DNA of 64,000 nt from a virus (Duplodnaviria > Caudoviricetes), in IMG/VR virus record IMGVR_UViG_2597490289_000004, positions 34,317-98,316 of that record, one strand, 5' to 3'. The notes beneath the pieces were generated by a model that ran no database searches, was not told the DNA's origin, and saw only the letters and a program-made list of their open reading frames with translations. Positions 11,477-30,359 of this stretch are shown one piece after another; position 1 is the stretch's first letter, and each line of letters begins with the position of its first letter. The translations under genes and the position numbers were made by a program.

Positions 11477-11496
11477 ATGACAAATGTAATACATAT
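11450..11496. other. attL junction of prophage
   Basis: hcp homology stops at GCATG|A (about 11475); integrase stop codon lies 20 bp further. Confidence 0.75.
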
Positions 11497-13321: not shown

Positions 13322-13379
13322 TTTTACTAAAATCTCCTTATCACATAAAATCATATATAATGACCATAAACAAAATATT

Positions 13380-13815: not shown

Positions 13816-14239
13816 AAATTTAGATTTAACAGAAATCAAAATGGTTTTTGGTAATGTTGAAAAAGTTCTACTTCAGCAAAAGATAATTAATAAATATGGA
13901 GAAAATTTAATTGTTAGAAATTCCTGATACTAAAAACTCAATTGTTTTAACAAAAAATCAATATCCAGATTTGCCTTTTGATGAAGTAGAAATAAATAAT
14001 CCAAAAGAATTTAAGGAAAAAATAAATCTTTATCATAAACTTATGGTTGAAGCTTATTATAGAGGAAGTTTTACAACAGAATCAGAATAAGAGGTCGCAG
14101 ACCAATAACTTAATTTAATTCTTAACATAACAATTTTAAAGACAAGCACATCTAAAGCTCAAAAAGCAATTACATCTAGTAATTTTCAGCTTAAGAGTAG
14201 TAGAAAGTAAATAACAAGCTAATTTAAGGAGGAGAATAT

Positions 14240-14992: not shown

Positions 14993-15057
14993 GATAAGAG
15001 ACTTTATATTAAATCTTTTATCTTAACATAATAACAGAATTGTAAGGAGGAATAAAC

Positions 15058-15600
15058 ATGATACGAATAATTAACAATACATTATATCTAAATGATGGTA
15101 CTTTTTATAACTTAAGCAATACAAGTAAAAAAAGAGTTTTGCAAGGATTAAATTCTCAATTACAAGAAGGAAGTTTGACCAAAACTGAATATAATCAATG
15201 CCTAGAATTAATTTCAATGAGTAAAAAAGAAGAATTAAAAAGATTAGAGGAAGTATGTAAACCAGTAGTGGATTATTTAAAAAAGAATTATGATCCACAT
15301 TGCGCAGTAGTTATTACAGATAGTCAAATAAGATTAGTTAGAGATGAAATAGATATTCCAGTAGGAACTGCTCAAGAAGTACCAGTTCAAGAGCAGCCAA
15401 AAGTAACATTTGATTATTTTATAGATAAACCATCAAAAGTAATTTTAACTAATGATGAAGTCCTATATAAAAACTTAATAAAAAATTATAGAACTATTTA
15501 TATGTTTGGACCTGAACTTAATAAAGGTAATAATTCAGATCATACTTTATCAATTAGCACTAATGATTATCGTTTGGTTCAAATCCCGTTGGATAAATAG
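15058..15600 (+). CDS. Hypothetical phage protein
   Basis: RBS AAGGAGG; ORF only. Confidence 0.6.
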   Translation: MIRIINNTLYLNDGTFYNLSNTSKKRVLQGLNSQLQEGSLTKTEYNQCLELISMSKKEELKRLEEVCKPVVDYLKKNYDPHCAVVITDSQIRLVRDEIDIPVGTAQEVPVQEQPKVTFDYFIDKPSKVILTNDEVLYKNLIKNYRTIYMFGPELNKGNNSDHTLSISTNDYRLVQIPLDK

Positions 15601-15781
15601 GATTACCTTTTGATGATAACCAACCAAGTTGAGTGAATTGAACTTCATTTAAATTTAAATTACCTATAATATCCCATCCAACTTTAACAAATTCATTAAT
15701 ATGTTTATTAACACTAGATTTGTTAAGTTTAGTAGATTGGAAAATATGATAATTTAGATAACCTTCAACATTAGGAAACAT
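15560..15781 (-). CDS. Hypothetical moron on opposite strand
   Basis: RBS AGGGGGTG before MFPNVEGY. Confidence 0.5.
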   Translation of the reverse strand: MFPNVEGYLNYHIFQSTKLNKSSVNKHINEFVKVGWDIIGNLNLNEVQFTQLGWLSSKGNPIYPTGFEPNDNH

Positions 15782-15852
15782 AAAAACACCCCCTTTCAAC
15801 ATAATTTTACCATATGTTAGGGGAAATAAAAAATATTAGGAGGAATGTAAAA

Positions 15853-16107
15853 ATGAAATCAACAGGCATTGTAAGAAAAATGGACGAGTTAGGAAGGGTA
15901 GTAATACCAATGGAACTAAGAAGGAACTTAAATATTGCTGAAAAGGATGCATTAGAAATTTATGTAGAAGGAGATAACATAATTTTAAAAAAGTATACTC
16001 CTGGATGTTTTATCTGCCAAGAGATTGATAATTTGGTTATTATTCCGGATTCAAAAGTTAAGATTTGTCCAAAATGTTTAGCTAAATTAAGAAGTAAGCT
16101 ACTTTAA
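15853..16107 (+). CDS. abrB: AbrB-family transition-state regulator
   Basis: MKSTGIVRKMDELGRVVIPMELRR with C-terminal CxxC...CxxC. Confidence 0.9.
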   Translation: MKSTGIVRKMDELGRVVIPMELRRNLNIAEKDALEIYVEGDNIILKKYTPGCFICQEIDNLVIIPDSKVKICPKCLAKLRSKLL

Positions 16108-16496
16108 GGAGGATTAACATGGAAGATGTAAATTTGTATGTAAACTTGCTTTCTAAGAAGAGACATAAGGTATCTATTGTAAAGAGAATAGTAAAAAGGA
16201 TTTTAGGGTTATGAATAATCCAAGAAAGTTAAATAACAGACACAAAAGATTCTTAAGTGAACAGGGATATAATCCAAAAGATTTTTTAATAGTGAGTGAG
16301 GGATATGACTATTATACATTTTACAGTAAAACTATTAAGAAGGTATTTGATATGAGGAGGTAGTAATGGGGAAGTTAGCAGATTATGCAGAGCAATCAAA
16401 AGAAGTAGAAAGGTTAGTTCAAGATGAAAGATACAGCATAGAAGAAGCTTTAAAAATTGTAAAAGAAAAATATTCAAGCAAGGAGGAAGAAAGGCA

Positions 16497-16826
16497 ATGA
16501 AGGAGAACTGGTTTGCATTATACCTAGCTGTAGTTGGAGAAAAAAGTTTAGATACTGCTTTAGGAATAATGGGAATAAGACCTAAAAGAGAATATATTAA
16601 AAACTCCAATTTAAAGTTAGATAATAGCGCAGTTAAATTAATAGAATTTCTTAAACTAGAGCATACATGGGAAGAAATAGGAGAAATGTGTGGAGTTAAA
16701 GGAGATTATTTAAGAAACAAGGTTAAAAATTATAAAGCTACCAAGAACTCCGACCAAAGCGTTCCTAGTAGCACAGCAAAATTTTCAATTTCATTATACC
16801 ACAAAACTGGAGGTGTGCAATGGTAA
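16497..16826 (+). CDS. Hypothetical HTH-containing phage protein
   Basis: TWEEIGEMCGV helix-turn-helix-like segment. Confidence 0.55.
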   Translation: MKENWFALYLAVVGEKSLDTALGIMGIRPKREYIKNSNLKLDNSAVKLIEFLKLEHTWEEIGEMCGVKGDYLRNKVKNYKATKNSDQSVPSSTAKFSISLYHKTGGVQW

Positions 16827-17022
16827 GTATTAAAAGATTTGAACAAAAGTCAGCGATAGTTAATTCAATAGTTGAAGATATAGTACATGCCTTACCGGAC
16901 AACGAAATTGCTGAGGAGTTAGAAAATAATTTTGGTGAACTCTATAGTATGATTTTAGGTTTGTGTGAAACCTTAGGTGTATTAAATTCAGATATTGAGA
17001 AATAAATAAGGAGGATTTTATT

Positions 17023-17535
17023 ATGGAAAATACATTATTAAAACAATATTTGCAAGAAGAAAGAAGAGAAAGTTTTAAAATAGAAAATTTAGAAGGTGCT
17101 ACATGGGCTTTTAGAAAATTAAGAGCTATTGGAACTAAGAAAGCAGAAGTTGAAGCTGTAGCAGCCGAGGAAATTGCACGAATCGAAGCTTGGAAGCAAG
17201 AACAGCTAAAACAATATGATGATGATACAGAGTTCTTTGAAGGTTGCATAAGCGTTTATTTTGTAGAAGAAAGAGCAAAGGATAAAAAGTTTAAATTATC
17301 TACACCGTATGGAAAAGTAAGTAGTAGAAAATCTAAGAAGTGGATTTATGAAGATGAAGCAGCACTTAAGGAATATGTAAAGGAAAATGAAATAGAAGCT
17401 ATTAGAGTTAAAGAGGAACTTGATAAAACAGTTCTTAAAAAGATATGCAAAGATGGAGTTAATACTGAAACTGGTGAAATACTTCCAGGAGTAAGAATTG
17501 AAGAAACTGAGACTATTGAAGTTAAAGCAGAATAG
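17023..17535 (+). CDS. Mu Gam-like host-nuclease inhibitor
   Basis: Coiled coil then LSTPYGKVSSRK and TGEILPGV; next to annealase. Confidence 0.75.
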   Translation: MENTLLKQYLQEERRESFKIENLEGATWAFRKLRAIGTKKAEVEAVAAEEIARIEAWKQEQLKQYDDDTEFFEGCISVYFVEERAKDKKFKLSTPYGKVSSRKSKKWIYEDEAALKEYVKENEIEAIRVKEELDKTVLKKICKDGVNTETGEILPGVRIEETETIEVKAE

Positions 17536-17550
17536 AGAGGTGAGAATTTA

Positions 17551-18117
17551 ATGGAGCTAACAAATCAAGTAAATAATAATAATTCAGATTTATGGAAATC
17601 TTTTATAGAATTTCAAAAAGACTTTAAAGGAATGCAACCAGATGCAACAAATCCCTTTTTTAAGTCATCATATATAACTTTAGATGGGATTTTAGAAACT
17701 GTAAGACCATTATTAGCTAAACATGGACTTGCAGTACTACAAGAAGCAAAGGGAGTAGATGGTTCAGTAACGATAAAAACAAGACTAGTTCATGAAAGCG
17801 GACAATATTATGAAACAGACATTTTAGAAATGAAACCTCAGAAAGCTAATGATCCCCAACAAATGGGTTCATGTATAACTTATTCAAAAAGGTATCAATT
17901 GGCAGCATTACTTGGAATTTGTGAAAGTGTAGATGATGATGGGAATACAGCCACATATGGCAATGGCAAATCACCTAATTCTAATAAAAATGATAATTCA
18001 GCAAAATCATATAAATGTGTATCATGTGGAAATGAAGTCACAGAAAAGGTGGCCAAGTTCAGTTATTCAAAGCATAAGAAAATACTTTGTATGGATTGTC
18101 AAAAGAAAGAAAAATAA
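17551..18117 (+). CDS. ERF-family ssDNA annealing protein
   Basis: NPFFKSSY, PQQMGSCITYSKRYQLAALLGI, DDDG; C-terminal zinc finger. Confidence 0.9.
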   Translation: MELTNQVNNNNSDLWKSFIEFQKDFKGMQPDATNPFFKSSYITLDGILETVRPLLAKHGLAVLQEAKGVDGSVTIKTRLVHESGQYYETDILEMKPQKANDPQQMGSCITYSKRYQLAALLGICESVDDDGNTATYGNGKSPNSNKNDNSAKSYKCVSCGNEVTEKVAKFSYSKHKKILCMDCQKKEK

Positions 18118-18128
18118 AGGGTGATTAA

Positions 18129-18998
18129 ATGGCACAAAGAAGGATGTTTAGTCTAAAAGTAATTGATACAGATATGTTTTTAGATATGCCACAATCAGCA
18201 AGGCTATTATATTACGACCTTTCTATGAGAGCAGATGATGATGGATTTGTAGCTTCACCTAAGAAGATACAAAGAATGATAGGATGCTCAGATGATGATT
18301 TCAAGATATTAATAGCTAAGAGATTCTTAATTCCATTTGAGAGTGGTGTATGTGTTATAAAGCATTGGAGAATACACAATTATATTCGTGCAGATAGGTA
18401 CGTAGAAACTATTTATAAAGATGAAAAACAAGAGTTAATTGAAGAAAATGGACAATATGAAGTTATACAAAAAGCTAATGACATACCAAATGTCATACCA
18501 ACGGTTTCCAATTTGTCAACGCAAATGGATACACAGGTTAGGTTAGGTAAGGTTAGGTTAGAGTTAGGTAAGGATAGTATAGATAATACAACTAAAGTTG
18601 TAAGTAGTACTAAAGTACAACCCATAACATCAAAATGGAATGAATTAGGCTTACAAAAGCTTATTTCTATAAATAAAGGTACTAATAGATACAAATTACT
18701 TCAAGCGAGAATTAAAGAGTATGGAGAGGAAAAGGTATTACAAGCTATAGAGAACATTAAAGATAGTAGTTTCTTAAAAGGTCAGAACGGTAAAAGCTGG
18801 ACAATAACTTTTGATTGGCTAATAAAACCTAATAATTTTGTAAAAGTTCTTGAAGGAAATTACAAAGACAAAGAAATACAGTCTCAGCAACCAAATAAAA
18901 ATAGAAAGTCATCATTAAGGTTTGACAATTTTGAAGCAAGGGATTATGACTATGATTCCTTAGAAAAGAAATTATTAGGATGGGATGAAAGTAATTAA
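18129..18998 (+). CDS. Phage replication initiator/replisome organiser
   Basis: MAQRRMFS...ADDDGF N-terminus; FDWLIKPNNFVKVLEGNY C-terminus. Confidence 0.85.
   Translation: MAQRRMFSLKVIDTDMFLDMPQSARLLYYDLSMRADDDGFVASPKKIQRMIGCSDDDFKILIAKRFLIPFESGVCVIKHWRIHNYIRADRYVETIYKDEKQELIEENGQYEVIQKANDIPNVIPTVSNLSTQMDTQVRLGKVRLELGKDSIDNTTKVVSSTKVQPITSKWNELGLQKLISINKGTNRYKLLQARIKEYGEEKVLQAIENIKDSSFLKGQNGKSWTITFDWLIKPNNFVKVLEGNYKDKEIQSQQPNKNRKSSLRFDNFEARDYDYDSLEKKLLGWDESN
18535..18573 (+). repeat. AGGTT/AGGTA pentamer repeats inside initiator gene (probable ori)
   Basis: caggttaggttaggtaaggttaggttagagttaggtaagg. Confidence 0.6.
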
Positions 18999-19022
18999 AA
19001 ATTATAGATTGAGGTGATTAAT

Positions 19023-19172
19023 TTGAAATTTAAAGAGCTTAAGTCAGATTGCAATAAAGTTGATGTATTAATAAACAAGTGGTTAAAGGAAAATCCAAGC
19101 GTAAAAGTTATGGATGTTAATTATACAGCTAACAATTTTGGAAGTCATGTGTTAATTAGTTATGAGGAGTAA
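19023..19172 (+). CDS. 49-aa hypothetical protein
   Basis: TTG start with RBS GAGGTG; MKFKELKSDCNKVDVLINKWLKENP... Confidence 0.6.
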   Translation: MKFKELKSDCNKVDVLINKWLKENPSVKVMDVNYTANNFGSHVLISYEE

Positions 19173-19196
19173 TTCATTATTGTCAGATATTGTGAA
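19173..19196. repeat. 24-bp 9-6-9 boundary site (type example)
   Basis: TTCATTATT-GTCAGA-TATTGTGAA directly after a stop codon; relatives at 19562, 19636, 21538, 21768, 22034, 27284, 27544, 51191, 52408. Confidence 0.6.
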
Positions 19197-19213
19197 GTGA
19201 AGGAGATGTTTTT

Positions 19214-19561
19214 ATGAAAAATAAACATGCAGGTATGATTAAAGGGTTTACTCAATTATCAAAAGCATGGTATGGAGAACCAAGTTTAAGAGGTGCTGAT
19301 TATATAGACTCAGTACATTTTGGGTTCTATGGCACAGAAGGCGGAACAACTGGCGAAGTTTCGGTTAAGTGGATAAACCTAAGTGGTAAAATAGTACCAC
19401 AATTAACTATTTTTAGTGACACTTGGAGTGCTTTATCTCAATTTCATGATTTAATTGATTTATTAGGTAAACATGATAATGAAGACCCTACTCCAGAGCA
19501 ATTTTGTAAATTTTTATTACACTGTGGCTTTGTAGATAGGACTGAAACTGTTAGAAGTTAA
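19214..19561 (+). CDS. Hypothetical protein
   Basis: RBS AAGGAG; flanked by boundary sites. Confidence 0.7.
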   Translation: MKNKHAGMIKGFTQLSKAWYGEPSLRGADYIDSVHFGFYGTEGGTTGEVSVKWINLSGKIVPQLTIFSDTWSALSQFHDLIDLLGKHDNEDPTPEQFCKFLLHCGFVDRTETVRS

Positions 19562-19654
19562 TTCGTAATGTGTAAATATTAAATAGTTTTTGTAAGCTTA
19601 AAATAATTGGAAATGTATATCAAAATTCAGAATTATTAAAGTAAGTCAGAAAGG

Positions 19655-20425
19655 GTGAAGAATGTGGAAATTAATAATGAAATAAAAGAAATATTTAAAG
19701 ATCATAAAGCACACTTTAGAGATTTAGGAGAAGTTCAAATATTAGATTGGAAAATAGATAATACGTTTTGTTGCTCTATAAGATATATTTTTGATAGCGA
19801 CAAACTATATATTTCAGGTGATTATGGTTGTGCTGTTTACTGGTTGACATGGAATGGAACACCACAAAGTTTTAAAGGTATTAATTTAGGATATTTTTAT
19901 GAAAAGAATGCAGCACATGAATATGATGAATATGAATTTAATGATAAGAAAGCTAGAGAAGATATAGAAGATTACTTAAGCTTTATGTTTGAAGATTATG
20001 AAAATGCAAAAGAAGGTCATGAGGAAGAAATAAAAGATATTGAAAAAGAAATAGCTGAATTAGACAGAGGAGATTATGATTCAGATGAAGATTTTCAAGA
20101 TGCTAAAGAAAATTTAAGACAGGATATTGACTATTATAAAGCTTTAATACAAGAAGAATATATAGCAGAAGAAATCGAAAAGAAAGAACGTATAAAGCAG
20201 GATTTATTAAATTTAGTTAATGAATCTTCTAGTTTAAGCCAATGGAATTACTATGTAGCAGAATCTAATGTAACTGATGATTTGCAAGAGTATGATTATG
20301 ATTATTGGGAATGGATAAGTGAAGTTGGAAAAGCAATACCAGAAAGAGCAGAGCTGCATTTAGCTGGATTAATAATGGCAGCAGAGCAATTAGAAGAAAT
20401 TGAGGTAAAGAATTATGAAGTTTAA
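19655..20425 (+). CDS. Hypothetical acidic phage protein
   Basis: LYISGDYGCAVY motif; long ORF. Confidence 0.7.
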   Translation: MKNVEINNEIKEIFKDHKAHFRDLGEVQILDWKIDNTFCCSIRYIFDSDKLYISGDYGCAVYWLTWNGTPQSFKGINLGYFYEKNAAHEYDEYEFNDKKAREDIEDYLSFMFEDYENAKEGHEEEIKDIEKEIAELDRGDYDSDEDFQDAKENLRQDIDYYKALIQEEYIAEEIEKKERIKQDLLNLVNESSSLSQWNYYVAESNVTDDLQEYDYDYWEWISEVGKAIPERAELHLAGLIMAAEQLEEIEVKNYEV

Positions 20426-20660
20426 AATTGAAGTAGATGAAACAAGAAGTTTTAGACATGAATTTGTAGTTGAAGCAGAGAATGCAGATAAATTAGATTC
20501 TATTTTAGATAAGATTGAATCTGAAAGAATGCTTGGAATAAATGATTATGAGTGCCTATTAGAAGAAAATGGATTAAAAATTATAGAAAGTGTAAGAGAT
20601 GAAGATGGAGATCTTGGAGAAATTGAATGTACTGATATAGAGGATTTTGAAGAAGATTAG
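20415..20660 (+). CDS. Small acidic hypothetical protein
   Basis: RBS GAGG; very D/E-rich. Confidence 0.65.
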   Translation: MKFKIEVDETRSFRHEFVVEAENADKLDSILDKIESERMLGINDYECLLEENGLKIIESVRDEDGDLGEIECTDIEDFEED

Positions 20661-20675
20661 AAAGGGTGAAAGAAG

Positions 20676-20909
20676 TTGAAGTTAAAAGACTTAAGATGTG
20701 TTTTGAGTTCACAAATGGTTGATATAAACTTAGATTTTTTGGACACTAGAACTTTTGTACAAGAAGATTATTCAGAAGATAATGAGTATTTAGGACAAGA
20801 TGAAAGTGAAAGCATGTGGGATTTATATGGAGAAAAAGAAGTAGAACAAATATATGCTGAAGATTCGGAACGTATAAATATAGATTTAGGGGGAGAAGTC
20901 AATGAGTAA
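20676..20909 (+). CDS. Small acidic hypothetical protein
   Basis: RBS AAGGGTG; D/E-rich. Confidence 0.6.
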   Translation: MKLKDLRCVLSSQMVDINLDFLDTRTFVQEDYSEDNEYLGQDESESMWDLYGEKEVEQIYAEDSERINIDLGGEVNE

Positions 20910-21080
20910 AAATATACAAGATTTAATTAATTACCTTGAAGCAGTAAAAGCAGAAAGTGGAAATTATACAGAAGTTAGAGTTGATGGATGCGTTGTAGAA
21001 GAATTTGAAGATTATATAGAAGTAGATCATGTAAAAGACTATGTTGATTTTGTAACACCTAGCAGAATTTAGGTGAGAGC

Positions 21081-21536
21081 ATGAAAAAATTATTCGTTAA
21101 ATACAATGATGGAAGTGGTACAACTTATACTATGGAAAATCGTGTAGATCATGAGAAATATGTATATAAACACATTAATGTTCCTGGGATAGAATCAATA
21201 ATTTTACAACAATATCCTAAATCAAAGTATGAGCCAGTTGTTTATATATATCATGGATTTTGTAAAGATGGGCAGAAGGAAATGTTGAAATACGATATTG
21301 ATTGGTATTTAGCATTTCAAGGGAATGTAAGTACATCTCTTATAAACAGATTAACAAATACATTAGGGTTAGATGAACATGATGCAGTACCTTATAGTAA
21401 TGCTGATTTAACTTATAAAATTAAAAGAAGTTTAGATATAATGATGCCTGTAATTTTAACAAAATGTATAGGGCATAAGATAGATGCTTTTAGAGATTGT
21501 GGAGTTAATAAATTTATAATTAAAATATCAAATTAA
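21081..21536 (+). CDS. Hypothetical protein
   Basis: RBS AGGTG. Confidence 0.65.
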   Translation: MKKLFVKYNDGSGTTYTMENRVDHEKYVYKHINVPGIESIILQQYPKSKYEPVVYIYHGFCKDGQKEMLKYDIDWYLAFQGNVSTSLINRLTNTLGLDEHDAVPYSNADLTYKIKRSLDIMMPVILTKCIGHKIDAFRDCGVNKFIIKISN

Positions 21537-21599
21537 ATTAGCAATATGCAGAAGGTGAATTTATAAAAAGCAAAAATGGCGAATAAATGAGGTGTGGAT

Positions 21600-21767
21600 A
21601 TGTTCGGTTTAATGTATAAATTATCAGTAAAGTTTCTGATATGGGACTTAAAAAGATTGGGTATAAATGATTTAGAAATAGTAATTAGAAGTGATGGAAA
21701 GACAGTTTATAAAAGAAATAAAGAAAGAGAAAAAAGCATTAAAAGAACATTAGATTTAATAAGGTAA
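21600..21767 (+). CDS. 55-aa hypothetical protein
   Basis: RBS GAGGTG; stop abuts boundary site 21768. Confidence 0.55.
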   Translation: MFGLMYKLSVKFLIWDLKRLGINDLEIVIRSDGKTVYKRNKEREKSIKRTLDLIR

Positions 21768-21796
21768 TTCACAATATGTAGAAAGGACGAAGCAAA

Positions 21797-22033
21797 ATGA
21801 CATTAGCTATGAAGATAAATAGAAAATTTACTAAGTGGAGATTGGAAAATACATTTACTCGAAAAGAAAGGCTTAAATGTAAAAAAGACGCTAATAGAAC
21901 TATAAAAAAAATCAAAAAGTGGAGAAAACTAATGAAGAATAAAAGCTTTGGAATTATAAATGAAGTTAATTGTAAGGCAATAATAAGATTAGCAAATAGG
22001 GGAAATAAATCGCAAAGAGAATTAAAAAGTTAG
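21797..22033 (+). CDS. Basic hypothetical protein
   Basis: Flanked by boundary sites 21768 and 22034. Confidence 0.55.
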   Translation: MTLAMKINRKFTKWRLENTFTRKERLKCKKDANRTIKKIKKWRKLMKNKSFGIINEVNCKAIIRLANRGNKSQRELKS

Positions 22034-22143
22034 TTCACAATACTAAGCCAGGATGAAAGACTGAATAGAGAATGAAGCTGCAGCTATAGTTGTAAAACTT
22101 CATTCTCAATAAATAATCAATTTCACAAGGGGAGGAAAGAATA

Positions 22144-23151
22144 ATGAGCAACTTAAACGAAGAAGTATCGATAAAATTAGTGGGAAAATTAACATTGTTA
22201 TTACCTTTTTTAGAACAGAAATTAGATATGCAACTGGAAGTTAAGAAAGTTATAGATGAGACTTTGTATAACTATGAAGTACAAACTAAGTGTACAGATT
22301 TAGTTTGCAGTGATATAGAAGAAAAGGCTCAGCTATACCTTGCATGTAAGAAACTAGAAGGTTTAAGCAATAAGACATTATATAATTACAAATTGTTTCT
22401 TAATAAGCTAGACCAGTATTTTACTAAACCATGTAGCACAATTGCAACAATGGACTTAAGAATGTTTCTAGGATTATTAGGAAAAGGGAAACAAGCTAGT
22501 ACTATTAATGGGTATATCACTTATTTAAAGAACTTTTTCGGATGGTTGCAGAATGAGGAATATATAATTAAAAATCCTGCCTTTAAATTAAAGCAAACTA
22601 AAGTTCCTCGAGTAATTTTACAGGGATATAAGGCAGAAAACTTAGAGAAATTAAGAGAAGCCTGTAAAACGGAAAGGGAAAAATGTCTTTTTGAACTATT
22701 AGATTCTACAGCTTGTAGAATATCTGAGATAGATAATATTACTTTAGATGATATTAATTGGTCCGAGCAGAGTATAAAAGTCACTGGAAAAGGAAATGCA
22801 CAAAGAATAGTTTATTTTTCTACTAAAGCTAAATTGCATATTCAGCAGTATATAAGTACAAGAAAAGGAGAATCAAACTATTTGTTTATATCAGAAAAAG
22901 CACCATATCAAGCAATAGGTACAAGAGCTTTGCAACTAATTATAAAAAAGATAAAAGATAGGACAAATGTAACAGAAAGGGTTCATGCGCATAAGTTTAG
23001 AAGGACTCAGGCGACTAGGCTATTAAATAGTGGAATGAGGATTGAAGGAGTACAAGGTATATTAGGACATACTACTCCAACTACAACTCAGATTTATGCA
23101 CAACTTTCACAAGAAAATTTGAAAAATGAATATAGAAGATTAGTAGTTTAA
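22144..23151 (+). CDS. XerD-like tyrosine recombinase (internal, not the integration enzyme)
   Basis: ACRISE, GKG, HAHKFRR, LGH, TQIY catalytic set; SAM-like N-domain. Confidence 0.9.
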   Translation: MSNLNEEVSIKLVGKLTLLLPFLEQKLDMQLEVKKVIDETLYNYEVQTKCTDLVCSDIEEKAQLYLACKKLEGLSNKTLYNYKLFLNKLDQYFTKPCSTIATMDLRMFLGLLGKGKQASTINGYITYLKNFFGWLQNEEYIIKNPAFKLKQTKVPRVILQGYKAENLEKLREACKTEREKCLFELLDSTACRISEIDNITLDDINWSEQSIKVTGKGNAQRIVYFSTKAKLHIQQYISTRKGESNYLFISEKAPYQAIGTRALQLIIKKIKDRTNVTERVHAHKFRRTQATRLLNSGMRIEGVQGILGHTTPTTTQIYAQLSQENLKNEYRRLVV

Positions 23152-23181
23152 ATTTATTAATAATAGAAAGGAAGAATAAAA

Positions 23182-23583
23182 ATGGAAAACATAATTAATT
23201 TAGAAAAGTTTGCTGAAGGAGCATTAGCTGAAAAAGTTAATATTGCACTTAAGGAGGTATTAAGTAATATAGCAGATCCTAATACAGATTGGAAAACAAA
23301 AAGAAAATTAACAATAGATATTACATTTGAATCACAAGAAGATAGACAATTAGCTTTATTGGATATTAAAACAAAGAAAAAGCTTGCAGAGCCAAAGAGT
23401 ATTGGGACAAGAATTATTATAGATACAGATGGAAAAGGTGGAATATTAGCTTCAGAATATAAAAAGCAAATTCCAGGACAATCAACAATGAGAGTTGATG
23501 AAGAAACTGGAGAAATAGTAACAACTGCAGAAGAAAAAGCAAATGATCTAATAGACTTAAATGGTATCAAATTAGTTAAATAA
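23182..23583 (+). CDS. Conserved phage protein
   Basis: NIADPNTDWKTKRKLTI; commonly paired with next gene. Confidence 0.7.
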   Translation: MENIINLEKFAEGALAEKVNIALKEVLSNIADPNTDWKTKRKLTIDITFESQEDRQLALLDIKTKKKLAEPKSIGTRIIIDTDGKGGILASEYKKQIPGQSTMRVDEETGEIVTTAEEKANDLIDLNGIKLVK

Positions 23584-23652
23584 TTAAATCTATATAGCCA
23601 TGGCAAGGGGCTTAAACCTTGCACATTAATTAAGAAAAGGTGGAAATAAAAA

Positions 23653-24366
23653 ATGAGAGAACAAGAAGCATTACAATACTTAGTACAATTAGGAGAAGAA
23701 AGTGAACCAATAATTGAATTAGATCAAGGAACTTATTCAAGAGTTGATTTAAATAGAGTTAAACAACCAAAGGCACAAGGATTAAGCATTAGTACATTAA
23801 CAGGATTCGTAGATTACATTAAGAGCAATATAGATGCAATAGACACTAAATTATTAATACATGTTGCATCACATAAAAGAGTTGACTTATATGGACCATT
23901 AAATGCAGATAGAGAAAGAGAATGTTATTTAGTAGCAGGAGCAGAGCTACCAACTAATATTAGATATGAGCAATTTTTAGATACAGAGCAATTTAATATT
24001 ATGTTACAAAGTTCATTTTCAGATAAAGGGGACAAGGAAGTTTTATTAAAATATACAGGACTTGTGAGAGATGAAGCTGTAAAAACTACTGGTGATGATG
24101 GAATAAGTCAAAAGGTAACAGTAAAAACAGGAGTTGCAAGTGTAGCTGAAGCTGTAGTACCTAATCCAGTAAGTTTAGCACCATATAGAACATTCCCAGA
24201 GATAGAACAACCTTTAAGTAAATTTATATTTAGAATGAAAGATGGTCCAAGAGCAGCAATTTTTGAAGCTGATGGAGGGGCATGGAGAAATACAGCTATA
24301 TTAAGAATTAAAGAATACTTAAAGGAAGCACTAAAAGAAAATGAAAACATTGAAATAATAGCATAG
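23653..24366 (+). CDS. Conserved phage protein
   Basis: PNPVSLAPYRTFPEIEQP, EADGGAW. Confidence 0.75.
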   Translation: MREQEALQYLVQLGEESEPIIELDQGTYSRVDLNRVKQPKAQGLSISTLTGFVDYIKSNIDAIDTKLLIHVASHKRVDLYGPLNADRERECYLVAGAELPTNIRYEQFLDTEQFNIMLQSSFSDKGDKEVLLKYTGLVRDEAVKTTGDDGISQKVTVKTGVASVAEAVVPNPVSLAPYRTFPEIEQPLSKFIFRMKDGPRAAIFEADGGAWRNTAILRIKEYLKEALKENENIEIIA

Positions 24367-24409
24367 GAAAATGGGAGGGGTAAAACTCTCCTAGAAAAAA
24401 GGAGAAGAT

Positions 24410-24901
24410 ATGGCTAAGAATTCAGGAAAAATATTTGAAGAAGATATAAAAAACTCAATACCTAAAAATCAAGATTTCTTTTATTACAGATTTATAGATA
24501 ATGCAGCTTCATTTAGTGGTGGAGATAATGTCAGATTCACTTCACACAACCTATGTGACTGCATGACAATGACAAAGGATAAATTATACCTTATGGAATT
24601 AAAAACCCATACAGGGGCAAGCTTACCACTATCATGCATAAGGGAAAATCAAATAGATGGTATGGCAAAGATAAATCATCCAAATATGAAAGCAATATTT
24701 ATTATTAACTTTAGAGAAAAAGAAAAAACTTATGCGATAGAAGCAGATAAATTAGAAAAATATATACAAACATCTAAAAGAAAAAGTATTCCCATTAGTT
24801 TCTTAGAAGAATGTGGAGTTGAAATAATAGGTACTAAGAAAAAAGTACATTACAGATATGATTTAGAAAAGTATTTTGAGGAGGACAATGATAATGAATA
24901 A
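24410..24901 (+). CDS. RecU-like Holliday junction resolvase
   Basis: GKIFEED...CD...MELKT PD-(D/E)xK motif, IRENQ. Confidence 0.8.
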   Translation: MAKNSGKIFEEDIKNSIPKNQDFFYYRFIDNAASFSGGDNVRFTSHNLCDCMTMTKDKLYLMELKTHTGASLPLSCIRENQIDGMAKINHPNMKAIFIINFREKEKTYAIEADKLEKYIQTSKRKSIPISFLEECGVEIIGTKKKVHYRYDLEKYFEEDNDNE

Positions 24902-25307
24902 AGTGGTATTAATAGGAAGATTAACAAAGGATCCAGAACTAAAATTTACACCAGGAGCAGGAACAGCAGTTACTACATTAACATTAGCAGTTGATAAGTA
25001 TAATTCTAAATCTGGTCAAAAAGAAGCGGACTTTGTACCTGTAGTTGTATGGGGTAAACAAGCTGAAAGCACAGCAAATTACATGGTCAAGGGTAGTCAA
25101 ATGGCTATAAGTGGAAGAATACAAACTAGGAACTATGAAGCTAAAGACGGTACTAAGAGATACGTTACAGAAGTAGTTGCTACAGAAGTTCAGTTCTTAA
25201 GTAAATCAAATGATTCAAGTGGCGGAAATACATCATCTAGTCCTTTTGATAGTGGAAACTTTGAGGCAGATATAAATCCTGTGGATGATGGAGATTGTCC
25301 TTTCTAG
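24894..25307 (+). CDS. ssb: Single-stranded DNA-binding protein
   Basis: MNKVVLIGRLTKDPEL, acidic tail DDGDCPF. Confidence 0.95.
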   Translation: MNKVVLIGRLTKDPELKFTPGAGTAVTTLTLAVDKYNSKSGQKEADFVPVVVWGKQAESTANYMVKGSQMAISGRIQTRNYEAKDGTKRYVTEVVATEVQFLSKSNDSSGGNTSSSPFDSGNFEADINPVDDGDCPF

Positions 25308-25316
25308 AAGGCAATT

Positions 25317-25517
25317 ATGAGTAAATATCTTTGGGTAGCAGTAAGCCCAGATAAGTATGAACTTCCACTAGTAGTTGAAGATACATCTAAAAAACTAGCA
25401 GATAAATTGAAAGTAACTGATGGATGTATAAGAGCATCGGAATATAATTATAGAAAAAGAAACAAGGGAAAGTATGAATCAAAATGTGATATAAGGATAA
25501 TTAAGATTTTAAGATAA
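25317..25517 (+). CDS. Hypothetical phage protein
   Basis: DKYELPLVV motif. Confidence 0.6.
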   Translation: MSKYLWVAVSPDKYELPLVVEDTSKKLADKLKVTDGCIRASEYNYRKRNKGKYESKCDIRIIKILR

Positions 25518-25604
25518 CTAAATAGAGAATAAGAGCAAATAGCAATATGGTTATAAGTTCTTATTCTCAAATAAAAATCAATTTCAAGAGAGGGAGTAAT
25601 AAAA

Positions 25605-25856
25605 ATGAAGGATTATGTAGAAAATAGGGTAAAGGAAGTAGCTGAATTTACAGTAGAAACTAAATCTACTGTAAGAAATACTGCAAAAACATTTATGTAT
25701 TCAAAATCTACAATATATAAAGATTTAACAGAACGTTTAAGTAATATAGATCCAGTTTTATATAACCAAGTACACAGCGTATTAGTAGAAAATAAATCTC
25801 AAAGACATATTAGAGGTGGAAAGGCTACTCAAAGTAAATTTAAGGGGTTGATGTAG
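25605..25856 (+). CDS. spoIIID: SpoIIID-like sporulation transcription regulator
   Basis: MKDYVENRV...TVR..AK.F..SKSTIYKDLTERL...RHIRGGKAT. Confidence 0.9.
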   Translation: MKDYVENRVKEVAEFTVETKSTVRNTAKTFMYSKSTIYKDLTERLSNIDPVLYNQVHSVLVENKSQRHIRGGKATQSKFKGLM

Positions 25857-26176
25857 TGGAAAAATTGAATTTAAGTATACAACTTAAAAATATAGACTTA
25901 ACAGAAATAAATATAGTTGAGCAAATGAATAAATCTGATGAAGAAAGAAAAGAGCTTGAGGATGCAATTTTATTATATACAACTAAGAAAAGTAACAATG
26001 AAGATAAACAAGAAATTGAAAATGAAAGAAATCATGTTATAGAGGAATTTTGGGACACAGTACAATCAAACTTAGGAGTATTAGATAAGTTAGGAATAAA
26101 TGCACAAGAAGTAATGGAAGGTTATTCTAAGCATTTAGTTAAGTTGGAAGATAGACCTAGAGTTAAGGAGGATTAG
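25856..26176 (+). CDS. MazG-like nucleotide pyrophosphatase
   Basis: DEERKEL ... IEEFWD acidic helices. Confidence 0.5.
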   Translation: MEKLNLSIQLKNIDLTEINIVEQMNKSDEERKELEDAILLYTTKKSNNEDKQEIENERNHVIEEFWDTVQSNLGVLDKLGINAQEVMEGYSKHLVKLEDRPRVKED

Positions 26177-26179
26177 TTA

Positions 26180-26584
26180 ATGGAATATATAAGTGAAGAA
26201 CAATTTTTAAAACAACCTAAGGAAATTCAAAAAGTGTTTATTGATTGGTGGAAACCAAGCACAGGGGATTTGTTTATAGATATATCAAAAATAGATTCAG
26301 ATGTTGATATTGTTTATTGTGTCCCTATTAATAACAAGCATTTTGAAAACTATAACGGTGAGATACATTATAAAATAGATTCTATTCCTTTATTAAGTGA
26401 AGGACAACTTAGAAAGTGTATTGAGGATAAGACAAATTGTTATATAAGTTGTTCACCAACATATAAATGTGATGGATATGATATTACTATTTTAGGAATT
26501 GTAGAAGATACTTACACTATTAAAACAGATAATTTACTTGAAGCCTATTGGAAAGTAGCTTGTGAAATTGCAAAGGAGGAATAA
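26180..26584 (+). CDS. Hypothetical phage protein
   Basis: WWKPSTGDLF, IPLLSEGQL. Confidence 0.65.
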   Translation: MEYISEEQFLKQPKEIQKVFIDWWKPSTGDLFIDISKIDSDVDIVYCVPINNKHFENYNGEIHYKIDSIPLLSEGQLRKCIEDKTNCYISCSPTYKCDGYDITILGIVEDTYTIKTDNLLEAYWKVACEIAKEE

Positions 26585-26761
26585 CTTATGTCTCCAAAAG
26601 AATTAGCAGAAAAAACAATTAGAGATATAGCAGCTAGGAGAGAAAGAGCTGATAGAGAATTTTATGCTTATCAAAAAGAAAGTGGAGTAAGAAGAAAAAA
26701 ATCTTCTAATGTAAGATACGGTGGATATAGGTGGTAATCCTAATAAATTAGGAGGGATAGG

Positions 26762-27286
26762 ATGCAAAAATATAAAAGAATACTTTATAAGGAAACAGAA
26801 GATAAATTATATAAATACTTCAATAGAGATAGAATATATAGAGGCTTGAATAGTCAATTAATTGTATTAAATAAACAGATAGATCAACTAAACAATGAAC
26901 TAAAAGATTGCAAGTATATCAATGTAGATGAGGAATCATCATCACCAAGTTTTGACGAAAGAGTACAAACATCATCTAGTTGTACAAGTTATGTTGAAAG
27001 CCAAGTAATTAAATTAACAGATATGAAGTTAAGAAGAAAAGAAAAAAAGGAACTGGAAAGAGAAAATATATTAAGTCAATTAGGTGATCTTGAATCAATA
27101 GTAGTAGAAATGGAATGGAAAGTAGGACAACTTAGGGACAATTATAAAAAAATGCTTTCCATGGTATATAAGGACAACATGAATGAAGTTCAAATATCTT
27201 TTAAATTGCATCTAAGCCAAAGCCAAGTGAATAAGAGAAAGAATAAGATACTAGAGCATATATTCATGTGGGAGAAATGGAATTAG
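26762..27286 (+). CDS. ArpU/RinA-like late transcription activator
   Basis: ERVQTSS motif, C-terminal sigma-4-like HTH; end of early region. Confidence 0.7.
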   Translation: MQKYKRILYKETEDKLYKYFNRDRIYRGLNSQLIVLNKQIDQLNNELKDCKYINVDEESSSPSFDERVQTSSSCTSYVESQVIKLTDMKLRRKEKKELERENILSQLGDLESIVVEMEWKVGQLRDNYKKMLSMVYKDNMNEVQISFKLHLSQSQVNKRKNKILEHIFMWEKWN

Positions 27287-27312
27287 GTAATATGTATAAA
27301 GTGTGAAGGAGA

Positions 27313-27540
27313 GTGATAAATTTGAAAAATAAAAATCTAAGTGTAAATAAAGAATTATCTTTGAAAGAAAAAATTGAATATGTAAATGAATTAGGAGGAA
27401 AAGACCCTACATTAAACCTTTTAATAAACTTAGAAAATCAAGGATTAGGTAATATATCTGTAACTGAAATATTAGATTCTATAGCAACTAATACAAAAGT
27501 TGAATTACCAAATAGAAAACGTAGTTTGATAATAGAATAA
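27313..27540 (+). CDS. Hypothetical protein
   Basis: RBS AAGGAG; flanked by boundary sites 27284 and 27544. Confidence 0.55.
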   Translation: MINLKNKNLSVNKELSLKEKIEYVNELGGKDPTLNLLINLENQGLGNISVTEILDSIATNTKVELPNRKRSLIIE

Positions 27541-27872
27541 TCCTACGCAATACTAAGTTAATATGAGGTGGATATGAAGAAAAATGAAATATTAAAGGAA
27601 ATTGATAAGAAGATACAATTTATTGAAAAGCAACAAGGAACATTAGAATCATATCAAATTGGAATGATATATGGATTAAAATTAGCTAAAGAAACTGTAA
27701 AAGAGTTTAAACGAGGAAAGTGAAACCATGGAATAAAAAAGGAATAAAAGAAGAATAATTTTCTAAGATTAAAGCTTTAAAATAGTAAGTGTAAAGAATT
27801 AAATTTAAACCTCTCATAAATTTAAAATACCCTGTATTACTTAGGTTGTATGGGGTATTTTTGTTATGTTTA

Positions 27873-27968
27873 TAGACCAGTAGGGTTTTATCCTCCTAAT
27901 TAATTTAAATGTGAAAGGTAGGTGTAAACCTCCAGACACAATATATAGTACATCAACTCTACTGGTTT
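27873..27968 (+). ncRNA. Candidate structured RNA with two CCTCC motifs
   Basis: ACCAGTAGGGTT pairs with AACTCTACTGGT, enclosing about 70 nt. Confidence 0.35.
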
Positions 27969-28022
27969 TATTTGTTATATATTAGAAAATAATGTATAAT
28001 AATCGAGAAAGTGGGGTTAAAC

Positions 28023-28187
28023 ATGATTAAAAGCGAATATGGAACATTGAAAACAGCAGTGGAGCCAAATAAAATAAAAACTCAGGTAAAAAGAGAAAAT
28101 AAAATAATGACACAAGTAAAAAGTGATAAAATAAAAACCCAAGTTAAAGGGGATAGAATAAGAACTCGAAGAATAAAGGAACTCTAG
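28023..28187 (+). CDS. 54-aa basic repeat peptide (KIKTQVK repeats)
   Basis: TTGTTA-17-TATAAT promoter at 27972-28000, RBS GGGG, downstream hairpin. Confidence 0.6.
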   Translation: MIKSEYGTLKTAVEPNKIKTQVKRENKIMTQVKSDKIKTQVKGDRIRTRRIKEL

Positions 28188-28233
28188 AAATAGGGTTCCT
28201 TTTTAATGCAATAAATTGAGGTGATAAAGCTAT

Positions 28234-28917
28234 GTGAAATGTGATAGAAATAAACTTAAAGATATACTTAAGGTTAATTTAAATACTTTAAAGCAGATAG
28301 AAAGAAGAAACAATCTACAGATAAGACTTAAAAAGATTGGTTATGATCTCGTAGATAAGCACAAAGAAAAAAATAAGTATATCTATGAGATAAAGAAAAC
28401 TACTGATGAATCATACAAGAAACTTAAAAGTATAATCAGCAGTACTTATAACTCTAATAGAGCAGATAAGTTTGTAACCTACTTTAATATAAGAACATTA
28501 GAAGAACCTAACACAGTAAGAGATATTGCAACAGCATCTGATGTTACAGAAAAAACAATAATAAAGTGGGATAATACTCTCCAAGATAAAAGAATACTTT
28601 CAAAAGATGGTTATTACTACTTTAGATTATGCAAAGATACTAGAGAAGTACAACAATGCACTATAGAAGAATACAAATCTTTCTGGAAGAACAAAGCTTA
28701 TATAAATGCTTTTTATCAACTCCAAAGCAAATACATGAATGGAGAAATAACACTTACAGAGTTGCGGTTAGCTTCAGGAGAAATAGCTGTAATAATAAGT
28801 ACTATAGAAAATAAGTATTACTTCAAGGTTAAAAAATATAAAGTTAATAAGGAAAATGAGTTATACATGGAAACTAAGAATTTAATAGATGAAATAGAAA
28901 CTAGAGCATTGGAATAA
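28234..28917 (+). CDS. Hypothetical DNA-binding protein (winged-helix-like)
   Basis: TVRDIATASDVTEKTIIKW; N-terminus shared with next gene. Confidence 0.6.
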   Translation: MKCDRNKLKDILKVNLNTLKQIERRNNLQIRLKKIGYDLVDKHKEKNKYIYEIKKTTDESYKKLKSIISSTYNSNRADKFVTYFNIRTLEEPNTVRDIATASDVTEKTIIKWDNTLQDKRILSKDGYYYFRLCKDTREVQQCTIEEYKSFWKNKAYINAFYQLQSKYMNGEITLTELRLASGEIAVIISTIENKYYFKVKKYKVNKENELYMETKNLIDEIETRALE

Positions 28918-28983
28918 CAGTACAAGTTATTGTTATCTTACCAATGTTCTTTTTGTTTTAATGGAAAGAAGGGTGTTAGCTAA

Positions 28984-29661
28984 ATGCTTAAAACAGACAG
29001 AAATGGTTTAATGAAAATACTTAATATTAATAAAAATGCATTAAAGCAAATTGAACGCAGAAATACATTAGGAAAAAGATTAAATCTTAAAGGTTATAAA
29101 CTTTTAGCTAAAGATAAAATGGGATTAACCAATGTCTATTATATTGAAGAATATGAATTTATAGAAGACAAACCTAGTAATAAAGCGATTATGACTAAAA
29201 AAGAAAAGAGAAGGATATATAGAAAGAGATATGAGAAAAAGCACAAAGAACAAGTTAAAGAACGCAGAAGAAAATACAGCAGAACTAATAGTTTTATAAA
29301 TTCAACAAAAATATATCAGAACAATAGGCGAGCAAGAGAAAAATACAATCAATATAATAGCATAACACTAGAACAATGGAAAGAATGTTTAAGATTTTTT
29401 GATAATAAATGTGCATACAGTGGCGAACAAAAAGAAGATGATCGATTATCATTAGATCATGTATTAGCATTAAGTAATGATGGTGATAATTTAATTTATA
29501 ATGTAGTGCCAGCAATTAATAAATATAATATAAACAAAGGTGAAAAACTATTTTTGCCATGGTATAAAAAACAATCTTTCTTTAGTGAAGAACGTCTTAA
29601 TAAAATATATGAGTGGCAAATATATGCTAAAAATAAATTTAAACAAAAGGGTACATTTTAA
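28984..29661 (+). CDS. HNH endonuclease
   Basis: CAYSG...SLDHVLALS..G.N...NVVPA...NINKG. Confidence 0.8.
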   Translation: MLKTDRNGLMKILNINKNALKQIERRNTLGKRLNLKGYKLLAKDKMGLTNVYYIEEYEFIEDKPSNKAIMTKKEKRRIYRKRYEKKHKEQVKERRRKYSRTNSFINSTKIYQNNRRAREKYNQYNSITLEQWKECLRFFDNKCAYSGEQKEDDRLSLDHVLALSNDGDNLIYNVVPAINKYNINKGEKLFLPWYKKQSFFSEERLNKIYEWQIYAKNKFKQKGTF

Positions 29662-29921
29662 AGGTATAACTACAAGGTATATATTAATACATATACTGTA
29701 GTTTACCCCGAAAAATGAACCCTTTTTATAATGCTATTTATATTAATTCATATATACTTATTAGCTTATATAAGAAGGTATTAAATTAGATGATTAATTA
29801 TATTAGAAAGTATTTAAAGACTTTCTATGGACTTAATAGATAAGTAAAAACACAGTATATTAATATGTAATCCATATAAATAAAACTGTAAATATGTAAG
29901 TAAATGAAATGAGGTGATATT

Positions 29922-30359
29922 ATGATAATAACAGATAAACATATACAGGCAATTAATCTAATATTAATGGGAAACCTTACGAATGCTAATATTGCTAAAA
30001 CTGTAGGAGTATCAGAAAAGACAATTTATAATTGGTTAGATAACAAAGATTTTAAGGTTGAGCTTCAGAAACGTACAGATGAATTAAATTCACAACAAAC
30101 CGAAGAAGGTAGAAGACAAATATTAGGTTTGCTACCATTAGCAATTAGTAATATAGCCGAGATAATGGCTGATAAAGACAATCCTAAGTTCTTTGAAACA
30201 AATAAGTATATTGTTGATAGAAACCTTGGCAATACCACAACCAAGATAGAACAATCATCTACAGGCGATAATAATAAGACTCCAGTAAGCATAACTGATA
30301 TGCTAGAGCAAGTGCAAAAGGATAATGTTATTGAGTTGCCTAAAGATAAAGCTAAATAG
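29922..30359 (+). CDS. Terminase small subunit
   Basis: N-terminal HTH IAKTVGVSEKTIYNW; upstream of TerL. Confidence 0.75.
   Translation: MIITDKHIQAINLILMGNLTNANIAKTVGVSEKTIYNWLDNKDFKVELQKRTDELNSQQTEEGRRQILGLLPLAISNIAEIMADKDNPKFFETNKYIVDRNLGNTTTKIEQSSTGDNNKTPVSITDMLEQVQKDNVIELPKDKAK

Follow-up and report, generated by a model that had tools for sequence, protein, structure and literature searches.

Two-armed 24-bp sites mark the borders of single-gene cassettes in the early region of a temperate Clostridium phage lineage

Gene-level shuffling of small accessory genes in mosaic phages is mostly credited to rare illegitimate events together with selection. A stretch of 64,000 nucleotides of prophage DNA, the right-hand 64 kb of the 98-kb IMG/VR provirus record IMGVR_UViG_2597490289_000004 (positions 34,317 to 98,316; G+C about 28%; hereafter the window), raises the question of whether single genes in its early region are exchanged at a dedicated DNA element and, if so, by which enzyme. 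A preliminary description of the window had listed eight 24-bp sites, each made of two 9-bp arms around a 6-bp spacer, at the borders of small genes, and had assigned their recombination to a XerD-like enzyme encoded among them (gene and protein are called REC here). All eight strings are present, each lying 0-3 bases after a stop codon (and overlapping it at 27284), and a ninth was absent from that list. These sites, the open reading frames (ORFs) that they delimit, and REC with its leader are as follows.

19173-19196, + strand: site 1, TTCATTATT-GTCAGA-TATTGTGAA, in which the consensus arm is the right one
19214-19561, + strand: cassette ORF of 115 aa between sites 1 and 2, no PHROG family
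19562-19585, + strand: site 2, weak, TTCGTAATG-TGTAAA-TATTAAATA
19636-19659, + strand: site 3, TTAAAGTAA-GTCAGA-AAGGGTGAA, a half-site of spacer plus Shine-Dalgarno-like right arm
21538-21561, + strand: site 4, TTAGCAATA-TGCAGA-AGGTGAATT
21594-21767, + strand: cassette ORF of 57 aa, a singleton among the compared loci
21768-21791, + strand: site 5, TTCACAATA-TGTAGA-AAGGACGAA, 26.7 bits (matrix made without the window)
21797-22033, + strand: cassette ORF of 78 aa between sites 5 and 6
22034-22057, + strand: site 6, TTCACAATA-CTAAGC-CAGGATGAA, 26.8 bits, the junction immediately 5' of the REC leader
22068-22125, + strand: REC leader, a hairpin (22068-22107) and the conserved box ATCAATTTCA (22116-22125)
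22144-23151, + strand: REC, 335 aa, PF00589 (5.6e-35)
27284-27307, + strand: site 7, TAGGTAATA-TGTATA-AAGTGTGAA, 14.3 bits
27313-27540, + strand: cassette ORF of 75 aa, swapped for the 78-aa cassette in relative G001 and for other DNA in contigs of runs X5 and X6
27544-27567, + strand: site 8, TACGCAATA-CTAAGT-TAATATGAG, 19.4 bits
52408-52431, + strand: site 9, absent from the earlier list, TTCGCAATA-GGATTA-TAGGATAAA, 22.8 bits

The 24-bp sites are a real element that marks cassette borders. Consensus counts in the window alone gave no enrichment: the half-site TTCRCAATA with at most one mismatch occurred 64 times against 55.0 +/- 7.1 expected, and the full palindrome with at most three mismatches matched once (at 19173) against 0.28 expected. 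Relatives were therefore needed, and we used 34 loci fetched through REC and 69 loci fetched through a neighbouring gene of family phrog_1029. A position weight matrix of 24 nt, trained on 24 intergenic sites of other loci with the window left out and applied at a threshold of at least 14 bits, matched the window five times forward and never in reverse, compared with a mean of 0.17 matches (maximum 2) in 30 dinucleotide shuffles, which bore out the enrichment that had been proposed as a check. The five matches (21768, 22034, 27284, 27544 and 52408) all lie directly after stop codons. The earlier caution that several sites are degenerate held for those at 19173, 19562, 19636 and 21538, each of which scored below 10 bits. 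In the complete 98-kb record, TARTTCRCAATA occurred four times forward, not at all in reverse, and not at all in a backward control.

The 9-6-9 layout is also real, as a control on spacing indicated. When TTCRYAATA and TATTRYGAA were searched in 104 related sequences with at most two mismatches in total, a spacing of 6 gave 23 occurrences and every other spacing from 0 to 14 gave between 1 and 8. Arm complementarity was likewise highest in this register: 13 sites had at least seven pairs at offset 0, compared with 0-3 sites at other offsets. All sites read along the coding strand and lie in the gap that leads from a stop codon to the following ribosome-binding site (RBS), and this orientation was visible in the counts: RCAATACTA occurred 23 times forward and twice in reverse in the 34 loci and window positions 14001-30000, and a looser pattern occurred 60 times forward and 15 times in reverse in 66.6 kb of intergenic DNA. 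When left arms behind stop codons were counted loosely, to compare REC-positive with REC-negative loci, reverse matches were as frequent as forward ones, which makes that comparison uninformative. No promoter or terminator among the scan matches listed falls at any site, and a search of Rfam placed no family at them, its sole match being a sub-threshold snoRNA at 27602-27679.

Two main forms of the motif were found, T(T/A)CRCAATA-CTAAKN-YAGGATRAA and TTCRCAATA-TGTAGA-WWGGACGAA. The spacers recur, as had been noticed, in the classes TGTAGA/TGCAGA/TGTATA, CTAAGN/CTAATA and GTCAGA, and a distant clade uses others (TGAAAT, CAAAWA). Most of the information lies in the left arm, T(T/A)CRCAATA, the right arm being variable or Shine-Dalgarno-like. 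The description of the sites as inverted repeats thus needs qualification: a true inverted right arm is present at a minority of them (for example 19173, L096 7183 and L069 10280, where it is perfect), and elsewhere the arm is degenerate. The remark that sites run into the next RBS was correct, the right arm often resembling an extended Shine-Dalgarno sequence (AGAAAGGRYGAA); in several relatives, a separate Shine-Dalgarno sequence follows the right arm (L013 4718, L007 4802, L018 3722), which indicates that the arm is not merely an RBS. At some junctions, a left arm and spacer are followed by a short G+C-rich hairpin (TTGCCGA..GGCAA or TTGGCGAGGTTGGCAA) and then by a second spacer and right arm (L012 4580-4630, L006 4902-4967, L067 12313-12389, L035 at about 5310, L041 at about 1920); these composite junctions look as if a tiny hairpin-only cassette lay between two sites.

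The preliminary description had predicted that gains, losses and replacements of genes between related phages would break in the spacer, and breaks were indeed found in or beside these six bases. We searched the 150 bases on each side of 26 strict sites for sharing in other loci, and of 83 partner comparisons 78 shared one flank only, three shared both flanks with an indel, and two, from a near-identical pair, shared both contiguously. Where the left gene differs between partners, the breakpoint still shows some version of the motif. Ahead of the REC leader, for instance, seven different left genes terminate in as many left-arm variants, each continuing with CTAA.. and YAGGATRAAA. In L063, L066 and L096, the same left gene, left arm and TGCAGA spacer lead into three different right arms and genes. 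Compared with L007, which has an empty site, L012 carries an insertion of 1568 bp bounded by two hybrid sites. Gene boundaries with the motif broke in 31 of 34 partners and were spanned in 3 (91% broken), whereas plain boundaries broke in 391 of 873 and were spanned in 482 (45%); breaks only were seen at 10 of 13 motif boundaries and at 61 of 284 plain ones. As the compared loci are related to one another, these counts do not come from independent trials. Shared islands with both ends at sites were found between G001 and L036, L009 and L041, L019 and L041, and L007 and the window, and also between G001 and L033 and between G001 and L012.

Seven of the eight originally listed sites contain ends of homology to the fetched loci, mostly within the spacer or at its edge, and contigs of four public sequencing runs from four studies (X1, X5, X6 and X8) supplied breaks from unrelated runs. 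Site 1, which has homologues in G001 (L054 3029), L007 (2331) and L018 (1654), holds the ends of high-scoring segment pairs (HSPs) with L006, L035 and L036 at 19186-19187 and with G001 and L007 at 19197. Site 2 showed no breakpoint among the fetched loci in the HSP comparison; contigs of X1 and X6 start to match within its spacer, at 19572 and 19574. At site 3, the HSP with L007 begins at 19645 and pieces of X1 and X5 contigs begin at 19644 and 19645. The left gene of site 4 is common to L007, with which homology stops at 21548, and an X5 contig joins 21553 to 22031. At site 6, eight HSPs start at 22028-22060, one ends at 22047 and none spans, and an X8 piece begins at 22050. HSPs with L005 and L006 end in site 7 at 27296 and those with L035 and L036 at 27301; here an X6 contig ends loosely at 27296, and an X5 contig joins 27307 to 27547 across 953 other bases. 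At site 8, the L005 HSP begins at 27552, X5 resumes at 27547 and an X6 piece begins at 27546.

The clearest single event is a swap in the relative G001. This genome matches the window at 100% identity over 24400-27283 and at 99.5-99.8% from 27568 to 30300; only the intervening cassette, between sites 7 and 8 (27284 and 27544), differs, and there the two are unrelated. The cassette that G001 carries at this locus is a 100% copy of window positions 21773-22047, that is, of the 78-aa ORF from between sites 5 and 6 (21768 and 22034) beside REC, with homology beginning in site 5 at 21773. Its junctions read GGTAATA followed by TGTAGAAAGGACGAAGC on the left, and TAGTTCACAATACTAAG followed by TTAATATGAGG on the right, which places the exchange within AATA plus TGTA on the left and within CAATA plus CTAAG on the right, namely in the spacer-proximal end of the left arm and the opening bases of the spacer. 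The sequence common to the exchanged partners at each junction amounts to only about 8-10 bases. Besides the window, a single viral contig contained the 78-aa cassette, whose mobility therefore rests on two contexts.

Taken together, the sites are probably preferred exchange points for single-gene cassettes. We propose that they are recombination sites bounding cassettes of one promoterless gene each within variable early regions of a temperate Clostridium phage lineage. Their right arm would repeat the left arm in inverted form (TATTGTGAA) or, as a degenerate copy, serve also as the RBS of the next gene. Strand exchange would occur in the spacer or at its edge, so that the left arm would stay with the upstream gene and the distal part of the spacer would travel with the right arm and the downstream gene. 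Relatives that reside in or infect the same cell would exchange cassettes one for one; since the left and right spacers of a cassette are often of unlike types, the usual event would be a two-site exchange between two genomes (recombinase-mediated cassette exchange) and not usually the excision of a circle. The most likely catalyst would be a Xer-type tyrosine recombinase, namely REC where it is present, acting in cis or in trans from another prophage.

How strong is the case for REC? The identification of the gene product as XerD-like was sound at the level of the family, as REC is a Xer-like tyrosine recombinase in which R192, K216, H283, R286, H309 and Y318 are all present. Its best NCBIfam models all scored below their cut-offs (XerA 204.5 bits against 220, XerC 170.7 against 335, XerD 155 against 330), and its best structure match was PDB 4a8e, a XerC-like protein, at 3.6e-27 with an alignment. 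Megablast of the region against named phages gave zero matches, and the closest homologue of REC among GenBank phages, in phiCp-D, is 40% identical. With leave-one-locus-out matrices, a site lay within 3 kb upstream of REC in 25 of 28 REC loci and within 3 kb downstream in 2 of 28 (0.61 compared with 0.04 sites per kb), an asymmetry that rests on a matrix tuned to three spacer types and loses force on that account. Arrays of small ORFs joined by such sites also lie immediately upstream of the gene in a clade whose REC shares only about 50% identity. Co-occurrence of sites and recombinase, the absence of which the preliminary description had named as refuting, is only partial: sites and cassettes were also found in G001, L057, L063, L066, L069 and L096, which lack the gene, and REC homologues lie in other genomic settings as well. 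From these sequence comparisons, we infer that a tyrosine recombinase, and REC in particular, would bind and cut the sites, and we suggest tentatively that a Xer-type enzyme (REC, or a relative acting in trans) may catalyze cassette exchange at them.

A fuller version of this proposal, which we consider somewhat unlikely, would be an integron analogue in which a phage Xer recombinase and 24-bp sites use the spacer types as mutually incompatible addresses and swap early genes one for one between co-resident prophages, leaving essential genes between like-oriented sites undeleted. The merging of the right arm with the RBS would then mean that every captured cassette is expressed at once.

Many observations weigh against catalysis by REC. 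In the distant clade, REC has a site behind it as well, so that the gene may simply be one more cassette, and among the 69 loci fetched through the neighbouring gene the strict motif was found in 1 of 13 REC-positive compared with 10 of 56 REC-negative loci. G001 lacks REC and keeps the sites, and the indel that distinguishes it is precise and away from any site; because G001 is near-identical to the window downstream of REC, its cassette could have been acquired in a REC-bearing parent, which makes the absence of REC weak evidence either way. L035 and L036 keep sites and carry an internally deleted REC, the perfect palindromes of L069 and L096 are in REC-negative loci, and REC homologues occur away from arrays, beside lysis genes (L014, L015 and L031) and in phiCp-D, which also encodes ParM and where a role in dimer resolution would be the ordinary expectation. 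The partner spacers of the clean swap differ by one base (TGTAGA and TGTATA, CTAAGC and CTAAGT), right arms are frequently a mere extended Shine-Dalgarno sequence, and many cassettes carry unlike spacers at their two ends, which is a poor fit to integron-style circle excision. Window positions 19198-23149 are replaced in G001 by 4.4 kb of arrayed small ORFs, many of whose junctions are TAAGTCAGAAAGGRYGWAG alone, with the left arm missing. Mosaic breaks are pervasive in these phages, and most lie away from the sites: of 587 breakpoint clusters, 16 fell at strict sites (12.7 times as many as at random), 15 at loose ones, 19 at half-sites of spacer plus AAGG, 220 at other Shine-Dalgarno-like sequence and 317 elsewhere, and of 71 non-redundant shared islands, 5 had both ends at sites, 12 had one and 54 had neither. 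Finally, the phage encodes Gam, Erf, RecU and SSB proteins of its own, as seen in the setting of the array.

11496-12962, - strand: large serine integrase (phrog_95 integrase, E 7.2e-95), at the left end of the prophage
12962-13411 and 13585-13815: repressor/Cro-like pair with helix-turn-helix (HTH) motifs, adjoining the integrase
Rightward early operon: anti-repressor, MazE-like, Mu Gam-like, Erf-like and DnaD-like initiator genes, then small ORFs of unknown function
17023-17535, + strand: Mu Gam-like gene (PF07352, 2.1e-25)
17551-18117, + strand: gene for an Erf-like single-strand annealing protein (PF04404, 1.5e-26)
Downstream of the small ORFs: REC, a conserved phrog_997/phrog_1029 pair, RecU-like gene, SSB, SpoIIID-like regulator and phrog_36 regulator
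24410-24901, + strand: RecU-like resolvase (PF03838, 6.2e-12)
24897-25307, + strand: SSB (PF00436, 2.8e-33)

As the preliminary description had held, integration of the prophage is the task of a separate enzyme, the predicted serine integrase at 11496-12962. The Gam-like and Erf-like genes (17023-18117, which also match phrog_2205 and phrog_2324) are, as judged from their families, the phage's own homologous-recombination genes, and they are the basis of the main rival explanation. This holds that the cassettes move by homologous or microhomology recombination, through Erf, Gam, RecU and SSB or through host RecA, and that the motif is the best patch of identity between otherwise unrelated cassettes. 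It would then be conserved for another reason, as a protein-binding site together with a translation start region, and selection for intact genes would confine breaks to short intergenic gaps that are almost wholly motif. Besides the presence of these genes in the window, 537 of the 587 breakpoint clusters lie at Shine-Dalgarno-like or other sequence, many junctions break at an RBS or start codon, the G001 array was joined without left arms, and sites persist where REC is absent. Shuffling by recombination through conserved intergenic cassettes has a precedent in the PeSL elements of T4-type phages (PMC2839356). Nevertheless, the clean swap in G001 used only about 8-10 common bases per end, motif boundaries break far more often than plain ones, which also have RBSs (91% compared with 45% of partners), and the exact 6-bp spacing of the inverted repeat is left unexplained. 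Shared stretches of 8-10 bases are short for annealing proteins. We regard this explanation as possible rather than probable.

A second alternative is that the sites are operators of a DNA-binding regulator, either REC acting in the manner of MrpR or another dimeric protein of phage or host, and that recombination at them is incidental. Bacillus phage SPbeta sets such an example, as it combines integration by a serine recombinase with MrpR, a protein of tyrosine-recombinase fold that binds the repeated intergenic element SPBRE (ten ChAP-seq peaks with a 15-bp motif; PMC10516654). The arms also behave as a protein site would be expected to, forming a consensus palindrome without site-specific compensation: at 80 sites, 4.99 pairs were observed compared with 4.90 after shuffling of right arms, and 303 of 2000 shuffles reached the observed value. 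On the other hand, MrpR keeps only three of seven catalytic residues (PMC10516654) whereas REC keeps the set of six named above, and REC is optional among close relatives that keep the sites. The sites lie inside one operon, after stop codons and not at the sigma-70-like promoters among the matches listed, and a separate HTH repressor/Cro pair stands beside the integrase. Regulation as the main role of the sites is improbable.

A third reading, in which the inverted repeat folds in the polycistronic early transcript as a signal for processing, stabilization or translational coupling, is very improbable. It would account for the strand specificity (23 compared with 2 for RCAATACTA, 5 compared with 0 for the matrix), for the constant position on the coding strand between stop codon and next RBS, and for the few sites that allow G-U pairs, such as TTCGTGATT / TATTGTGAA in G001. 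However, four sites of the window folded no better than shuffles (z = 0.57, -0.12, 0.96 and 0.48), the shuffling of right arms revealed no covariation beyond the consensus, and no Rfam family matched. Lastly, it is scarcely credible that there is no element at all and only a chance resemblance in AT-rich DNA combined with ordinary Shine-Dalgarno sequences, since, even though plain pattern counts in the window were not above shuffles, several listed sites are degenerate, and spacer plus right arm resemble AGAAAGGAGGTGA (the extended Shine-Dalgarno consensus derived from the 16S 3' end), this reading conflicts with the cross-trained matrix (5 compared with 0.17), the spacing control (23 compared with 1-8), the strand bias and the relatives with a separate, real Shine-Dalgarno sequence after the right arm (L013, L007, L018).

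Several further features of the region were observed. The deletion in the REC gene of L035 and L036 (at about 6170-6180) lies between two copies of the 10-base repeat ATATAGAAGA (window 22313 and 23130) and leaves about 60 codons fused to the last few. The leader element of REC (22068-22125) has a second copy before the SpoIIID-like gene (25525-25586), with fold z values of -3.24 and -6.14. Each consists of a strong hairpin with outer GAGAAT...ATTCTC, then AAUAAAUAAUCAAUUUCA, then an RBS; in relatives, the inner stem sequence varies and the pairing and outer GAGAAT/ATTCTC are kept, and in G001, without REC, the element stands directly 5' of the phrog_997 gene. The element might act on the replication module as a promoter/operator or as a regulatory RNA. 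The phrog_997 gene was always paired with the phrog_1029 gene in 43 distinct homologues from the fetched loci. Its product (23182-23583, with the PHROG label 'replication terminator') was considered as a protein resembling the replication terminator protein that might own the sites, and was rejected: its AlphaFold model (pLDDT 76.5) has one helix and five strands, with no PDB fold match at E <= 0.001.

The SpoIIID homologue carried by the phage (25605-25856) matches PF12116 at 7.2e-33 and scores 108.8 bits on TIGR02844 (cut-off 111.5), and the early operon contains a MazE-type antitoxin-like gene (15814-16107; PF04014, 6e-13) for which no toxin partner was identified. A long palindrome of the type AATGTCGTGC...GCACGACATT in L008, L009, L010, L013 and L019 (about 4640-4700, minus strand) is a candidate lysogeny-switch operator, and ATGTCGTG is enriched 38-fold in intergenic DNA. 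Site 9, which comes after a 50-aa ORF 3' of the tail genes, has homologues in L014, L015, L031 and L001, the last in the same record upstream of the window. This site after a small ORF thus occurs twice in the 98-kb record (record position 29508 in L001 and window position 52408), with homologous flanks that suggest that the record may contain parts of two related prophages.

How, then, does the element compare with known systems? On the features compared, it falls outside the integrons, the PeSLs and the MrpR/SPBRE system, and it agrees with Xer-type sites in geometry, whereas REC scored below the cut-offs of the XerA, XerC and XerD models. Xer sites, as described for the dif sites of plasmids, have two arms, a 6-bp centre and one better conserved arm (PMC6449649). 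The dif modules of Acinetobacter plasmids (pdif sites, XerC/XerD) likewise have short two-armed sites with a 6-bp centre and one better conserved arm at the borders of small modules, the same module in different backbones, and a Xer-type enzyme as the proposed agent (PMC6449649). The arms are 11 bp there and 9 bp in the phage sites; the phage modules are single promoterless ORFs within a phage operon, with the right arm doubling as an RBS; and the candidate enzyme comes from the phage and is not always present. Sites of dif modules alternate in orientation, whereas the phage sites all point one way on the coding strand. In the nearest genome found, that of Clostridium weizhouense (68% identity on a flank protein), the site pattern occurred 15 times compared with 13 in the control, and a generic dif-type pattern gave no clear single site.

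Integrons share with the phage loci an array layout in which promoterless cassettes of one gene each adjoin the gene of a tyrosine recombinase and have imperfect inverted repeats at their borders, and integrons have been reported in phages (PMC9892861). A cassette found at two positions and arrays without the recombinase, comparable to attC clusters without an integrase, are further likenesses. REC is not IntI, however, scoring 60.4 bits on TIGR02249 (cut-off 265) and 31.7 on NF011946 (cut-off 435), and it is co-oriented with the array and downstream of it, with cassettes that often have unlike end spacers. Whereas attC sites are long inverted repeats recognized as folded single strands, the phage sites are 24 bp long and show no fold (z from -0.12 to 0.96) and no structure-only conservation.

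The PeSLs of T4-type phages (PMC2839356, PMC4122927) are similar in that small genes of unknown function in hyperplastic early regions have a short conserved element in the intergenic space beside them, with insertions, deletions and replacements at the element between close relatives (PMC2839356). PeSLs, in contrast, consist of a sigma-70-like promoter and a terminator stem-loop and recombine by homology, whereas the phage sites have no listed promoter-like match or stable hairpin and have a 9-6-9 geometry of recombinase type. The SPbeta system resembles the window in its serine-recombinase integration, its internal protein of tyrosine-recombinase fold and its repeated intergenic element, and differs in that MrpR is an essential master repressor that has lost catalysis, whereas REC has the full set of catalytic residues and can be missing from close relatives. 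The SPBRE elements occupy promoter regions (PMC10516654), whereas the phage sites lie at stop-to-RBS junctions that coincide with mosaic breakpoints.

Literature searches, which did not extend to supplementary files, gave no description of the motif in Clostridium phages. We would class the element as a novel form of a familiar arrangement, in which gene modules are flanked by sites. Many of the small accessory genes of phages are likely defence or counter-defence factors, and a countable element at the exchange points, at least one clean recent swap in an otherwise identical background and an adjoining candidate enzyme make the question of their exchange directly testable. If homology drives the exchange, the PeSL idea would be extended from T4-type to temperate Gram-positive phages with a much shorter element. 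If a recombinase is responsible, tailed phages of Firmicutes would possess a site-specific cassette system of their own, distinct from integrons and plasmid dif modules, with short heterospecific sites of possible use as tools.

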